Shown here one piece after another: positions 1,612 to 4,143 of a DNA stretch of 4,143 nt. Source of the stretch: a virus (Duplodnaviria; Heunggongvirae; Uroviricota; Caudoviricetes); IMG/VR virus record IMGVR_UViG_2548877009_000015. One strand, 5' to 3'. Under the pieces are notes generated by a model. That model did no database searches. It saw nothing but the letters and a program-made list of their open reading frames with translations, and was not told where the DNA came from. The position numbers and the translations under genes were made by a program. Each line of letters opens with the position of its first letter. Within the stretch, counting starts at the first letter, position 1.

Positions 1612-1623
1612 AGGTGTACACAT
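1612..1623. promoter_or_regulatory. Operator-like site 2 (AGGTGTACACAT, GTGTACAC palindromic core) overlapping the regulator start codon
   Basis: Shares ATAGGTGTACAC with the reverse complement of site 1; centres are 35 bp apart; the 3' end overlaps the ATG at 1622-1624. Confidence 0.5.
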
Positions 1624-1816
1624 GTCAACGGTTATTAAGCGTGATAAAAAACCAAAGGGAACAGGTAAAGCCCCCCCGTTCCATATGCGAATATCTCCAG
1701 AACTGAAAGAACAGTTTGATAACGAGGCTAGCAATGATGGAGTAAGCCTAGCCAACTGGCTTAAAGAGTTGGGGCGCACTGAACTAAAGCGGCGCGGCAT
1801 AGAACCCAAAGGATAA
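1622..1816 (+). CDS. Ribbon-helix-helix (Arc/MetJ-like) DNA-binding protein, 64 aa; putative repressor of the divergent promoters
   Basis: Basic N-terminal tail KRDKKPKGTGKAPP, then FHMRISPELKEQFDNEASNDGVSLANWLKEL, which fits the beta-strand / helix / Gly-turn / helix pattern of Arc-like proteins. Two palindromic sites lie immediately upstream. AGG 7 nt before the ATG; TAA stop at 1814-1816. Confidence 0.65.
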   Translation: MSTVIKRDKKPKGTGKAPPFHMRISPELKEQFDNEASNDGVSLANWLKELGRTELKRRGIEPKG

Positions 1817-1873
1817 AAACCATCAGCGCCGTGGTGTGAGGTACTCCGGCGCATTGCTTTACCGGTACACACA

Positions 1874-2077
1874 ATGACCAACAAAGAATCAACCAATACA
1901 CCATCGCAAAAAACGAACAGAGAGCACGAAAATATGGCGCTCGAGCATGAATCAGCAAGATTCGCACCATGCGCTTTTGTCCTTGATGAGTTTCTAAAAA
2001 AATATTCACGTTCTGAACGGATGAAAATGGCAGCACAATACGGCCCCAACAAGCAAGATAATTGCCCACCAGCCTGA
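1874..2077 (+). CDS. Hypothetical small protein, 67 aa (or 47 aa from the internal ATG at 1934)
   Basis: ORF between the regulator gene and the plus-strand terminator with hydrophilic K/E-rich composition. No clear Shine-Dalgarno at either start. Could instead be a non-coding 3' region. Confidence 0.3.
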   Translation: MTNKESTNTPSQKTNREHENMALEHESARFAPCAFVLDEFLKKYSRSERMKMAAQYGPNKQDNCPPA

Positions 2078-2144
2078 TCGCGGTTATCATGCCCGGGCTT
2101 ATGATTGTTGACACATACGGCGCAGCGGGTTAATTGTTCAGAAA

Positions 2145-2173
2145 GGTGGCTCCATTTCGGGGCCGCTTTTTTT
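2145..2173 (+). terminator. Rho-independent terminator closing the plus-strand regulator transcript
   Basis: Stem 2146-2153 GTGGCTCC pairs with 2159-2166 GGGGCCGC (two G-U wobbles), loop ATTTC, then T7 at 2167-2173. On the minus strand the wobble pairs become mismatches and no U-run follows, so it is essentially unidirectional. Confidence 0.55.
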
Positions 2174-2198
2174 ATGTTCATCATTTGCCCTATATATG

Positions 2199-2405
2199 TT
2201 AAGCGGTCGTTCCGCGCGCTTCTTGTTCGCGTTCTTTCATCCATGCGATTACGTCTTCCTCATACCATCCGCGACGGCGCAAACCGACACGAAAACCCTG
2301 CGGGAATTCTCCGGCGTTGATCATGCTTTGCAGCGTGCTGTCTGCCTTAATGTGGATAAGTTTTTTTACTTCCTGGCGAAAGATGACTTTTTTGATTGCT
2401 TCCAT
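2199..2405 (-). CDS. alpA: AlpA-family winged-helix transcriptional regulator / excisionase-like protein, 68 aa
   Basis: Translation ...FRQEVKKLIHIKADSTLQSMINAGEFPQGFRVGLRRRGWYEEDVIAWM fits the AlpA/Vis/TorI pattern (R..EV..L....ST......G.FP......G.R..W.e.dv.aW). ATG at 2403-2405 preceded by GAGG with a 9-nt spacer. Same orientation as int. Confidence 0.8.
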   Translation of the reverse strand: MEAIKKVIFRQEVKKLIHIKADSTLQSMINAGEFPQGFRVGLRRRGWYEEDVIAWMKEREQEARGTTA

Positions 2406-2420
2406 CGTGATTTACCTCAT

Positions 2421-2512
2421 TAATCCGGTGTATTCCGGTGAGAAATACGGTAAATCATCGGATGCAGGGAAAAACAGTACTCACCGTTTTTAAACGGTAT
2501 ACACCGTTTTTT
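2421..2512 (-). promoter_or_regulatory. Promoter/operator region of the AlpA-family gene with a repeated CGGT(G/A) motif array
   Basis: Tandem 10-mers TAATCCGGTG (2421-2430) and TATTCCGGTG (2431-2440); ACGGT at 2447-2451 and 2494-2498; inverted copies CACCG at 2482-2486 and 2502-2506; hairpin-like ACCGTTT-TT-AAACGGT at 2483-2498. Lies between the int-operon terminator and the alpA ribosome-binding site. Confidence 0.45.
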
Positions 2513-2536
2513 ATATTGATGATTTGAAAGGGATTT

Positions 2537-2564
2537 ATAAAAAAAGCGGCATTTCTGCCGCTTT
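2537..2564 (-). terminator. Rho-independent terminator for the int transcript
   Basis: Minus-strand RNA reads GAAAGCGGCA-GAAA-UGCCGCUUUUUUUAU: 6-bp GC stem (2546-2551 / 2556-2561) extendable by A-U pairs, GAAA tetraloop, then U7 (plus-strand A-run 2539-2545). Confidence 0.7.
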
Positions 2565-2572
2565 CAGGATTG

Positions 2573-2803
2573 TTACCGCCATTTTTTTGGCCTGCCTCCG
2601 GTCTTCATGGATGCCGGACGTACAACCTTATCAATACTTACAGCCAGATTTCTGGAAGCCCCACGGGATACCAGGAAATCTACTACCTGTTTTTTTGATG
2701 GGGCCGTCGTTCTGTCCTCCGGATCGTAGGTTGACCAAAATTCATGCTGAACCATCAGGGCCAGTTGCAGCCCGTCGCAATTGCATCTGAAATTTGTTTG
2801 CAT
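2573..2803 (-). CDS. Hypothetical small protein, about 76 aa from the first ATG (track ORF extends to a TTG at 2824)
   Basis: ORF between the int stop and the terminator; its stop (2573-2575) lies 11 nt upstream of the terminator stem. No convincing Shine-Dalgarno before the ATG at 2801-2803, and no recognisable family. Confidence 0.3.
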   Translation of the reverse strand: MQTNFRCNCDGLQLALMVQHEFWSTYDPEDRTTAPSKKQVVDFLVSRGASRNLAVSIDKVVRPASMKTGGRPKKWR

Positions 2804-2858
2804 CTTAACAGTTTCATTTTTCAAGGCCTCGTCGTTAAATGTGATGCAATTATACGAC

Positions 2859-2893
2859 GGTTTTAAATGGTTTTCGTAGTTTTTACTGGTTTT
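2859..2893. other. Helically phased T-tracts (putative intrinsically bent DNA) just downstream of the int stop
   Basis: GGTTTT at 2859-2864 and 2869-2874, GTTTTT at 2879-2884, GGTTTT at 2888-2893; T-tract spacing about 10 bp. Confidence 0.4.
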
Positions 2894-2901
2894 CTGTACA
2901 G

Positions 2902-4143
2902 CTAAACGGCTCGGATACCCCTTTTACCACTGGCGAGGGTTACGCCCGTCGCCGCAGCCTCGACAAATTCGCCCCACCAGCGCATAAGCACGATGCGTTT
3001 TTCTATGTAGTTGCTCCGGTTGTATGCCCGTCTGACTTCGTTGGTGTCGACGTGGGCAAGTGCGGCCTCTATTACGTCTGGCTCAAAGCCTTCTTCGTTC
3101 GCTGCTGTGCTGAATATGGCGCGTAATCCATGAGACACCAGCACGCCAGCGAATCCCATGCGTCGTAATGCTGCGTTAGCGGTCTGGCTGTTCATCGGCT
3201 GCTGTGGGTCTTTCAGACTCGGGAAAACATAATCGCGGTGGTGGCTGATTGGTTTCATAGCCTCCAGCACTGCCATAGCCTGGTCACAAAGCGGGATAAC
3301 GTGGTCGCGGCGCATCTTCATGCGTCCGGCGGGTATGGTCCAGCGTTGCGCTTCCATGTCGATTTCTTCCCAGCGTGCCGACGATGCTTCAACGGGACGG
3401 GTTACGGTCAGTAACTGCCATTCAATCAGTAATCTGGTCTGCCGTTCTGTTGCCGATACTGATAAAGCCTGCATAAGCTCCGGCAGCTGTTCGGGGCGGA
3501 TTGTTGGCATATGTTTTTTTACAGGGGAGGGGAACGCCTTACGCACATTCATAGCCGGATTGGCATCAATCATCCCACTATTGGCGGCGTAATCCATTAC
3601 CTCATTTATACGCTGTAAAACTCGCTTGAGCGTTTCCAGGTTGCCACGTTCCTTGATGGGGGTAAGCACCTCAACGAACCTGCGAGCGGTCAGGGTGTCT
3701 ATTGGCGTGTTGCCGATGAACGGGAATACATATTTTTCCAGCGATCGCCAGATGTCTTTAATCGTATTGGGGGCCAGATTCTGGCTGATTTTCACCTGGT
3801 ACCATGCTGTTGCCACATTTTCGAACGTGTTCCCTTGTCTTCGGGCCTCTGTCTCTCTTTTTTGCCTCTCGTGGTCCTGCGGGTCAGTTCCGGCACGAAT
3901 TAACGCCCTGTACTCGCTACGGCGTTTTCTGGCATCAGCCAGGGAAACATCATCAAGCGATCCAAAACTCAGCAATATTCTTTTTTTGTCCGATGGTCGG
4001 TAGTAGGAAAATCTCCAGAGTTTTGATCCGGACGGTTTGATCAGGAGAAAAAGCCCTCCGCCGTCCTGTAGGGTGTATTCCTTTTCTGCTGGTCTGGCTG
4101 CTTTGATCTGTACTGTGGTTAATGGGGGTGTTTTTCTCGCCAT
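2902..4143 (-). CDS. int: Tyrosine recombinase, P4-family phage integrase, 413 aa
   Basis: 413-aa ORF starting MARKTPPLTTVQIKAARP. N-terminal arm-binding-type region (DGGGLFLLIKPSGSKLWRFSYY...SLADARKRR). C-terminal catalytic signature with Arg in TRPVEASSARWEEID, HGLR (HxxR box) and LAHVDTNEVRRAYNRSNYIEKR with the catalytic Tyr, then MRWWGEF. ATG at 4141-4143 (cat on plus), TAG stop at 2902-2904. Confidence 0.95.
   Translation of the reverse strand: MARKTPPLTTVQIKAARPAEKEYTLQDGGGLFLLIKPSGSKLWRFSYYRPSDKKRILLSFGSLDDVSLADARKRRSEYRALIRAGTDPQDHERQKRETEARRQGNTFENVATAWYQVKISQNLAPNTIKDIWRSLEKYVFPFIGNTPIDTLTARRFVEVLTPIKERGNLETLKRVLQRINEVMDYAANSGMIDANPAMNVRKAFPSPVKKHMPTIRPEQLPELMQALSVSATERQTRLLIEWQLLTVTRPVEASSARWEEIDMEAQRWTIPAGRMKMRRDHVIPLCDQAMAVLEAMKPISHHRDYVFPSLKDPQQPMNSQTANAALRRMGFAGVLVSHGLRAIFSTAANEEGFEPDVIEAALAHVDTNEVRRAYNRSNYIEKRIVLMRWWGEFVEAAATGVTLASGKRGIRAV

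Follow-up and report, generated by a model that had tools for sequence, protein, structure and literature searches.

The 4.1-kb stretch of DNA analysed here (4,143 nucleotides of the IMG/VR virus record IMGVR_UViG_2548877009_000015, in the following the window) is the integrase-proximal end of an Escherichia coli island and belongs to a phage satellite of the phage-inducible chromosomal island (PICI) type. Between its AlpA-type gene and a leftward operon headed by an Icd-like gene lies a small gene for a 64-amino-acid protein with a predicted ribbon-helix-helix (RHH) fold. We propose, from sequence comparison and a fold model, that this regulator is probably an immunity-type repressor of the Icd-like/replication operon, which would act through two 12-bp sites in the divergent control region and is swapped together with these sites as a cassette.

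In the published model, Gram-negative PICIs have no recognised repressor, AlpA being their activator, and this difference from the Gram-positive islands has been called a mystery (PMC6092414). Papers on PICIs and on capsid-forming PICIs likewise mention none for the Gram-negative islands. A survey of PICI gene content reports only Bro-type proteins and immunity RNAs in the regulator zone of Gram-negative PICIs (PMC10111431). In the literature searched, no paper linking ribbon-helix-helix proteins to PICIs, or citing the RefSeq accessions of the homologues, was found. An earlier note on this DNA had offered two roles for the regulator, a master repressor of the island or the antitoxin half of a toxin-antitoxin (TA) pair formed with the 67-amino-acid open reading frame (ORF) behind it (orf67), and had regarded such a repressor as an unusual control layout.

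Gene and fold of the regulator

1622 to 1816, + strand: gene of the 64-amino-acid RHH regulator (from selection, an alignment of 24 homologues and a fold model)

Compared with homologues 75-79% identical in DNA, the gene shows a ratio of nonsynonymous to synonymous substitution rates (dN/dS) of 0.11-0.13, and the differences in the same comparison are distributed 7/6/28 over codon positions 1/2/3. This substitution pattern shows ORF 1622-1816 to be a real gene kept by purifying selection. Its product starts with MSTVIKRDKKPKGTGKAPPF, a basic tail with six lysine or arginine residues within 20. As these basic N-terminal 20 residues are kept across 21 full-length homologues, the first ATG (1622) is taken as the translation start. 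The basic N-terminal arm (residues 1-19) is followed by a beta-strand at about 20-25, helix A (26-38) and helix B (43-57).

The family is small: 5.8 billion proteins yielded 27 clusters, and a set of 1.8 billion yielded 128 representatives at E<1e-3. Nearly all members are stand-alone proteins of 43-110 amino acids. Best PDB match of the family profile is Arc of phage P22 (E 0.0019), with residues 12-59 aligned onto Arc 2-49. The N-terminal arm is aligned too, KGtGKaPaFkmRi of the profile being placed on KGMSKMPQFNLRW of P22 Arc. This similarity is significant but weak, the identity to Arc amounting to only about 25%. Moreover, PHROG 228 'Arc-like repressor' matches the regulator (6e-6), and the HicB RHH model of Pfam stays sub-threshold (19 versus a cut-off of 21 bits).

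The earlier note had called for a comparison with known structures, which was made on a single-chain AlphaFold (AF2) model. An extended segment at 20-25 and helices at 26-38 and 43-57 are modelled with a predicted local distance difference test score (pLDDT) of 86-93 in the core; the beta-strand is not formed in the monomer, as expected. The beta-strand-helix-helix topology of the RHH superfamily is present in the model. In Foldseek, the top five hits are Arc structures (probability ~1), and NikA, ParG, CopG and RHH antitoxins follow, so that Arc ranks best and CopG lower among the matches. The basic tail and the Arc-like core that had been described from the sequence are thus both found, and the predicted fold class is RHH, Arc-like.

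As a side observation, the C-terminal tail GIEPKG (residues 59-64, window 1799-1816) is nearly invariant in the family, including a 42%-identical Pasteurella protein, and a second RHH allele in the ST130 island described below ends in the similar GIESKE. The tail could serve as a conserved interaction or degradation tag.

Two predicted operators in the leftward promoter

Within the 130-bp divergent control region between the regulator and the Icd-like gene, two 12-bp sites AGGTnnnnACCT (AGGT-N4-ACCT) lie 35 bp apart.

1295 to 1489, - strand: Icd-like gene, heading the leftward operon (NCBIfam phage_ICD_like, 5e-18)
1599 to 1628, - strand: leftward promoter P_left, with -35 TTGACA (1628-1623), an 18-bp spacer and -10 TATGTT (1604-1599)
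1577 to 1588: predicted operator O1, the perfect 12-bp palindrome AGGTGTACACCT, about 10 nucleotides past the -10 of P_left
1612 to 1623: predicted operator O2, AGGTGTACACAT, filling the -35/-10 spacer of P_left

The palindromes noted before at 1577-1588 and 1612-1623 are real. The window holds six matches to the site within three mismatches, where 0.89 are expected, and six were reached in 0/200 shuffles. O1 covers the start of the leftward transcript; the ribosome-binding site and start codon of the regulator gene overlap with O2.

Ten homologous loci were compared (the window, L002, L004, L005, L006, L009, L010, L011, L013 and L015), drawn from three kinds of E. coli islands, Edwardsiella, a Klebsiella phage record, two metagenome contigs, a Mor-containing element and the Pasteurella satellite Pmp8. 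Each of them has a perfect TTGACA in the direction of the divergent operon, and it is retained even where the overlapping start codon of the regulator is TTG instead of ATG. All ten have a TAnnnT -10 at 16-18 bp from it. Likewise in 10/10 loci, one site lies exactly within the P_left spacer and the other about 10 nucleotides past the -10, the position of O1 being kept throughout.

The outer AGGT/ACCT is constant in the ten loci, and the central 4 bp are allele-specific and vary jointly in both sites of a locus. The centre of O2 equals the centre of O1, or its reverse complement, exactly in eight loci, with one and two mismatches in the other two. Six classes of centres can be distinguished, which coincide with the identity of regulator residues 19 and 21, aligned to the base-contacting residues Q9 and N11 of Arc:

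Residues 19 and 21 P, H: centre GTAC (window, L011)
Residues 19 and 21 Q, R: centre GACC / GGTC (L002, L004, L005)
Residues 19 and 21 Q, K: centre GGCC (L013)
Residues 19 and 21 M, N: centre ATAG / CTAT (L006)
Residues 19 and 21 A, Q: centre GTGT / ACAC (L009, L015)
Residues 19 and 21 Q, Q: centre AATT / ATAT (L010, Pmp8)

R23, aligned to R13 of Arc, is invariant. Such co-variation of residues and centres is the pattern that a protein-operator pair predicts.

A further palindrome, AAACGGTATACACCGTTT (2490-2510), precedes alpA by about 90 bp. The core of this palindrome, GGTATACACC (2495-2506), is one base off the operator core and was considered as a third operator. It is probably an unrelated hairpin, since the region is 99% identical in the RM9387 element, which has a different regulator, and since no locus carries extra copies of its own motif.

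An exchangeable cassette with many alleles

1561 to 1809: exchangeable cassette with both operators, both promoters and the regulator gene

Identity to RM9387 amounts to 93% in the stretch 1-1560 of the window and to 99% in 1810-4143, and the approximately 250 bp in between are unrelated. The replacement DNA of RM9387 encodes a protein of the YlcI/YnfO family and has its own, different repeats. The breakpoints 1561 and 1809 exactly enclose sites and gene. Immunity regions are recognised by just such a joint swap of regulator and sites between elements that are otherwise homologous. Regulator and sites thereby bear the signature of a phage-type immunity cassette that, as far as sequence can tell, comes in many alleles: the six Arc-like centre classes and the YlcI/YnfO types.

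Concerning the distribution of the module, about 215 complete E. coli genomes contain 80% or more of the length of an Arc-like cassette, and the orf67 region is present in 834 complete E. coli genomes. The synteny of regulator, divergent operon from Icd-like gene to primase, and alpA-int was found at 12 loci from four genera, with representatives in E. coli, Edwardsiella, the Klebsiella record, metagenomes and Pasteurella (Pmp8). Relatives show the order Icd-like gene, small ORFs, DUF4222, then primase or RepA helicase. The RHH homologue of Pmp8 is 42% identical, and an O157:H7 capsid-forming island whose gene content matches the description of EcCIEDL933 encodes a 63-amino-acid homologue. In EcCICFT073, the prototype E. 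coli PICI, a YlcI/YnfO-family regulator is divergent from an Icd-like gene (L018 8243-8653, NC_004431.1 1380242-1380652); this module occupies the same position as in the window, has its own repeated motif, AGGTGTGGCCCAC, and is completed by a 57-amino-acid orf67 homologue behind the regulator. With comparable modules in EcCICFT073, the O157 capsid-forming island and a Pasteurella satellite, the layout is not an unusual one as the earlier note had thought. Judged from these comparisons, a regulator module is common in Gram-negative satellites, overlooked and partly hidden by annotation.

The ST130 island (L003) contains a window-type cassette plus a tandem second RHH allele, which is 36% identical (hhalign probability 95%). 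A second regulator-orf67 module is therefore arranged in tandem there. Leftward of the window-type cassette, at L003 8676-8861 on the - strand and inside an 'ash family' pseudogene, Rfam detects C4 (77.6 bits) and isrK (66 bits). According to this arrangement, one element can combine a protein repressor cassette with P4-type RNA immunity.

Proposed mode of action

We infer that RHH dimers would bind the two AGGT-N4-ACCT sites of the divergent control region. With O2 in the P_left spacer and O1 on the first transcribed bases occupied, RNA polymerase would be blocked, and the replication and late operon (Icd-like, DUF4222, primase/helicase) would be kept off. The Icd-like/replication operon is the presumed target because no other partner is conserved all the way from E. 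coli to Pasteurella. Since O2 lies over the ribosome-binding site and start codon of the regulator and O1 over its upstream region, the protein is also likely to keep its own synthesis in check. The cassette would be exchanged by recombination among satellites, like phage immunity regions.

Induction would probably bypass the repressor rather than destroy it. Between the convergent genes orf67 and alpA lies a terminator that is predicted for one direction only:

2141 to 2173, + strand: intrinsic terminator of the regulator-orf67 transcript, with a 13-bp stem and U-run

On the - strand, the structure is not significant (z 0.04). Transcription from alpA could therefore run on, antisense, through orf67 and the regulator into the replication operon. 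Such read-through would bypass P_left and interfere with repressor synthesis.

Several points weigh against the proposed repressor role. Each cassette passes on its residue class and its operator class as a unit, which means that the association of the two does not consist of independent events. For the regulator's own promoter, no convincing conserved -35/-10 pair was found among the loci. The YlcI/YnfO alleles reach a hhalign probability of only 0.3 as RHH proteins, and the bridge from YlcI/YnfO to RHH is an indirect one through the second allele of ST130. Moreover, the locus-specific motif is confined to the divergent promoter in every locus and is missing near alpA and int, which argues that the regulator does not control the whole island. 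Over-expression of AlpA alone induces EcCICFT073, and alpA expression depends on the helper (PMC6092414); the regulator is accordingly not the sole gate and may be a minor brake. Of the master repressor suggested by the earlier note, the repressor part is supported by the Arc-like fold, operator placement, co-variation and cassette exchange, and the 'master' part has to be given up in view of the confined motif and the sufficiency of AlpA. The regulator is probably not the phage-sensing switch.

The small ORF behind the regulator and the toxin-antitoxin question

1826 to 1852, + strand: conserved hairpin (GCGCCG, 15-nucleotide loop, CGGCGC) at the right cassette edge, 5' leader of the orf67 unit
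1874 to 2077, + strand: orf67, 67 amino acids (PHROG 21027, 2e-11), with conserved core and variable tails

The ORF had been described as having weak translation signals in front of a good terminator. Indeed, it has no Shine-Dalgarno sequence (ggtacacacaATG), and the + strand terminator at 2141-2173 is strong. In the alignment of homologues, a core of 21 codons (EHESxRFAPCAFxLxxFLKxY) is conserved and the ends vary freely. Between the window and L008, the core differs at 10.5 of 13 synonymous but 4.5 of 50 nonsynonymous sites, a ratio of nonsynonymous to synonymous differences per site (pN/pS) of about 0.11, so that the core behaves as coding DNA; dN/dS for the whole gene is 0.43. The homologues form 12 clusters, all from E. 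coli. The AF2 model of orf67 is helical and of low confidence (pLDDT 65). The hairpin at 1826-1852 accompanies every gene of the orf67 family regardless of the regulator and is missing where orf67 is missing; its stability is no better than that of shuffles (z -0.43).

Could the RHH protein and orf67 form a type II pair, as antitoxin and toxin respectively, with autoregulation via the palindromes? An operon of an RHH gene and a small ORF with palindromic operators is the usual TA architecture, homologues of the regulator carry the NCBI/RefSeq label 'HicB family antitoxin', and there is the sub-threshold HicB match in Pfam. Against such a pair speaks foremost the lack of a constant partner, as orf67 is missing or replaced behind the RHH gene in 9/12 loci examined, counting the window. 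It follows the RHH gene in the window, O157 and ST130; nothing follows in L004, L006, L013 and Pmp8 (L010), a SWIM protein follows in L005 and a 450-amino-acid protein in L011, L012 and L015, and in the Klebsiella record (L009) no + strand gene is annotated behind it. Conversely, a near-identical orf67 stands behind the unrelated YlcI/YnfO regulator of RM9387 and behind the 36%-identical RHH protein of ST130, and an identical 57-amino-acid orf67 allele is found behind an Arc-like RHH protein in O157 and behind a YlcI/YnfO regulator in CFT073. Regulator and orf67 are separated by 57 nucleotides and the hairpin. No toxin family in Pfam, NCBIfam, PADLOC or PDB matches orf67, the PADLOC defence-system models gave no meaningful match, and HicA was found neither in the window nor in 12 related loci.

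The RHH DNA-binding domain is what the regulator has in common with HicB, ParD, RelB-like, VapB and AtaR antitoxins. Unlike these, it has only seven residues beyond helix B and no toxin-binding, neutralising C-terminal extension, no N-terminal domain of HicB, and neither hicA or another toxin as a neighbour nor a conserved partner. Given a variable partner without co-variation, we consider a TA pair very unlikely, and the corresponding alternative of the earlier note is not supported. The name 'HicB family antitoxin' of the homologues rests on the shared RHH domain only. By its conservation and its changing company, orf67 is a separate real small gene on the regulator's transcript and not a cognate partner.

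In other hosts, varying cargo genes occupy the place behind the regulator (L011 4218-5573, L015 4219-5568, L005 3336-3692), namely a 450-amino-acid protein without Pfam match in Edwardsiella and in an E. coli-like metagenome contig, and a SWIM zinc-finger protein. This fits an accessory-gene hotspot. One may ask whether the regulator mainly controls its own small operon and this cargo, with little effect on the satellite cycle. The variable cargo directly behind the regulator (orf67, SWIM protein or 450-amino-acid protein) and the overlap of O2 with its start codon would agree with such a role. We nevertheless regard it as quite unlikely, for the only partner conserved across genera is the divergent Icd-like/replication operon and not the cargo, O2 lies exactly in the P_left spacer in 10/10 loci, and several loci are without any downstream gene.

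A long open frame on the opposite strand

An ORF of 248 amino acids, 2244-1498 on the - strand, spans regulator, orf67, terminator and promoters. In O157:H7 and ST130, RefSeq/PGAP annotates a 247-amino-acid 'hypothetical protein' opposite the module in place of the RHH gene (L002 9016-9759, L003 8999-9739); elsewhere, fragments of it are called 'pseudogene'. If it were the real gene, the small + strand ORFs would be its shadows. A long open frame exists also in O157 (247 amino acids), RM9387 (235) and ST130 (454), and its pN/pS over the RHH segment is low as well (0.26-0.34). Its third codon positions, however, coincide with those of both + strand genes, which accounts for the frame staying open and for the low pN/pS, and the + frame has the lower pN/pS in 4/4 comparisons (0.19-0.23). 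In L005 and L006, the - strand frame is cut to 52 amino acids and the RHH gene is intact. Moreover, the ORF crosses a terminator, two promoters and the operators, has a composition rich in cysteine, serine and arginine and lacks a Pfam match, and it is the + frame that yields an Arc-like fold. That the - strand ORF is the gene is therefore extremely unlikely, and we rejected it as a shadow ORF on account of its third positions, its breaks in L005 and L006 and its lack of a family.

A candidate antisense RNA at the Icd-like start

1483 to 1560, + strand: candidate cis-antisense RNA of about 78 nucleotides, complementary to the Icd-like gene at its ribosome-binding site and start codon

Its putative promoter consists of TTGTGT (1448-1453) and TATGAT (1471-1476), the -10 being kept in 10/10 loci. 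The predicted RNA has a 5' hairpin with CUCCU (anti-Shine-Dalgarno) in the loop and a terminator hairpin at 1518-1552, followed by a U-run. Its minimum free energy is -31.4 (z -3.7, 0/200 shuffles). Compensatory changes occur in 10/16 predicted pairs, almost all within the terminator hairpin with its 11 pairs. In addition, there are several G-U pairs, which can form on the + strand only. The 3' end coincides exactly with the left edge of the regulator cassette. In Rfam, nothing in the window reached the gathering score, and no C4, isrK or int-alpA RNA was found at E<1; the RNA itself has only a sub-threshold match to SymR (1484-1555). The sub-threshold matches to SymR, rnk leader and Atu_C8 were discarded, as they are driven by terminator hairpins.

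Setting in the island

2405 to 2199, - strand: AlpA-type helix-turn-helix gene (alpA)
4143 to 2902, - strand: integrase gene (int)
also on the - strand: ORF of 83 amino acids

Behind the Icd-like gene, the leftward operon continues with small ORFs and DUF4222, all on the - strand. In close relatives, which are integrated at tRNA-Pro or another attachment site, the same operon extends into RepA helicase or primase, PerC and capsid genes. The presence of int, alpA, a divergent regulator and an operon from an Icd-like gene to helicase/primase is the organisation of a Gram-negative PICI.

Two further observations concern the island itself. Its closest relatives encode a 629-amino-acid fusion of a ClpP-like prohead protease and a major capsid protein (L001 7356-9245, L003 2640-4529) and have neither portal nor terminase, unlike classical PICIs and the full capsid-forming type. 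In the window, a run of nine C at 845-853 (G9 on the coding strand) is located where the overlapping - strand ORFs 815-1132 and 621-842 meet; these two match the two halves of one 154-residue PHROG family, phrog_2512. The run may point to a split gene, to slippage or to phase variation.

Comparison with known regulators

By sequence, including the arm KGxxKxPxFxxR, and by predicted fold, the closest relative of the regulator is P22 Arc of the immI region, which also contains Mnt. The operator of Arc lies between -35 and -10 of a strong promoter, amid overlapping divergent promoters, and the region is also the site of action of sar, a small antisense RNA. The arc gene heads the arc-ant operon, which its product represses, whereas the gene described here is divergent from its presumed target. 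The Arc operator is one of 21 bp with TAGA boxes, unlike the two separate 12-bp AGGT-N4-ACCT sites, and the targets differ as well, an antirepressor for Arc and the Icd-like and replication proteins here.

With Stl/Rpr of the Staphylococcus aureus pathogenicity islands and other Gram-positive PICIs, the regulator shares its location beside int, divergent from the replication operon, and the proposed silencing (PMC6092414). Stl/Rpr are larger helix-turn-helix proteins inactivated by helper-phage proteins, and the documented trigger in Gram-negative islands is activation by AlpA. The relation between the 64-amino-acid RHH protein and Stl/Rpr is thus a functional analogy and not homology.

CopG (RepA) of pMV158 and other plasmid copy-control repressors are RHH proteins of 45-64 amino acids that act on the promoter of a replication operon, as is predicted for the regulator. 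Like CopG, the latter could therefore be a feedback regulator which sets the level of replication genes, and thereby copy number, after induction, rather than silencing the integrated satellite. The resemblance of the RHH folds, the primase or RepA helicase encoded in the target operon, and the sufficiency of AlpA for induction of EcCICFT073 would suit such a role. However, copG lies within the operon it represses, being co-transcribed with repB, and the pseudo-palindromic CopG site that overlaps the promoter is a single 13-bp element; the gene of the regulator is divergent, has its own terminator and two sites, and resides in an integrated satellite. Immunity modules typically come in diverse alleles with operators to match, and the perfect -35 of P_left argues for a need of tight repression. 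We hence consider copy control after induction unlikely and favour the immunity-type repressor.

In P4/P1 RNA immunity, with CI, C4 and IsrK RNAs upstream of icd-type genes, there is likewise an operon headed by an Icd-like gene with a small structured RNA, which in the window is a predicted one, at the translation start. In ST130, the same type of cassette lies upstream of bona fide C4 and isrK elements. Unlike in P4/P1, the candidate RNA of the window is truly cis-antisense, on the opposite strand, and a predicted protein repressor is present in addition.

Meaning for Gram-negative satellites

Even though the device as such is classical, its presence in Gram-negative satellites, both prototypes among them, as the likely repressor module seems not to have been reported. 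The analysis provides a concrete candidate repressor with defined putative operators, promoter and specificity residues. Since it occurs in two experimentally tractable prototypes, the question of a repressor becomes directly testable. The annotation is corrected as well: homologues have been misnamed HicB antitoxins or masked by the 247-amino-acid shadow ORF, and such mislabelling enters the counts of 'toxin-antitoxin' systems in satellite surveys (e.g. PMC13612085). Moreover, the six classes of operator centres and residues are a small natural data set on the specificity of DNA recognition by RHH proteins.

As a tentative and more far-reaching possibility, Gram-negative PICIs, including EcCICFT073 and the O157 capsid-forming island, may not be devoid of repressors. 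They might carry an immunity module, overlooked so far and rich in alleles, that pairs a small RHH-type repressor and its matched operators at the replication-operon promoter with a cis-antisense RNA across the Icd-like start codon. This module would be overridden by helper-induced AlpA, through antisense read-through of the regulator gene. If so, satellite control would amount to a repressor/antiterminator switch, and the diversity of alleles would decide which co-resident satellites silence each other.

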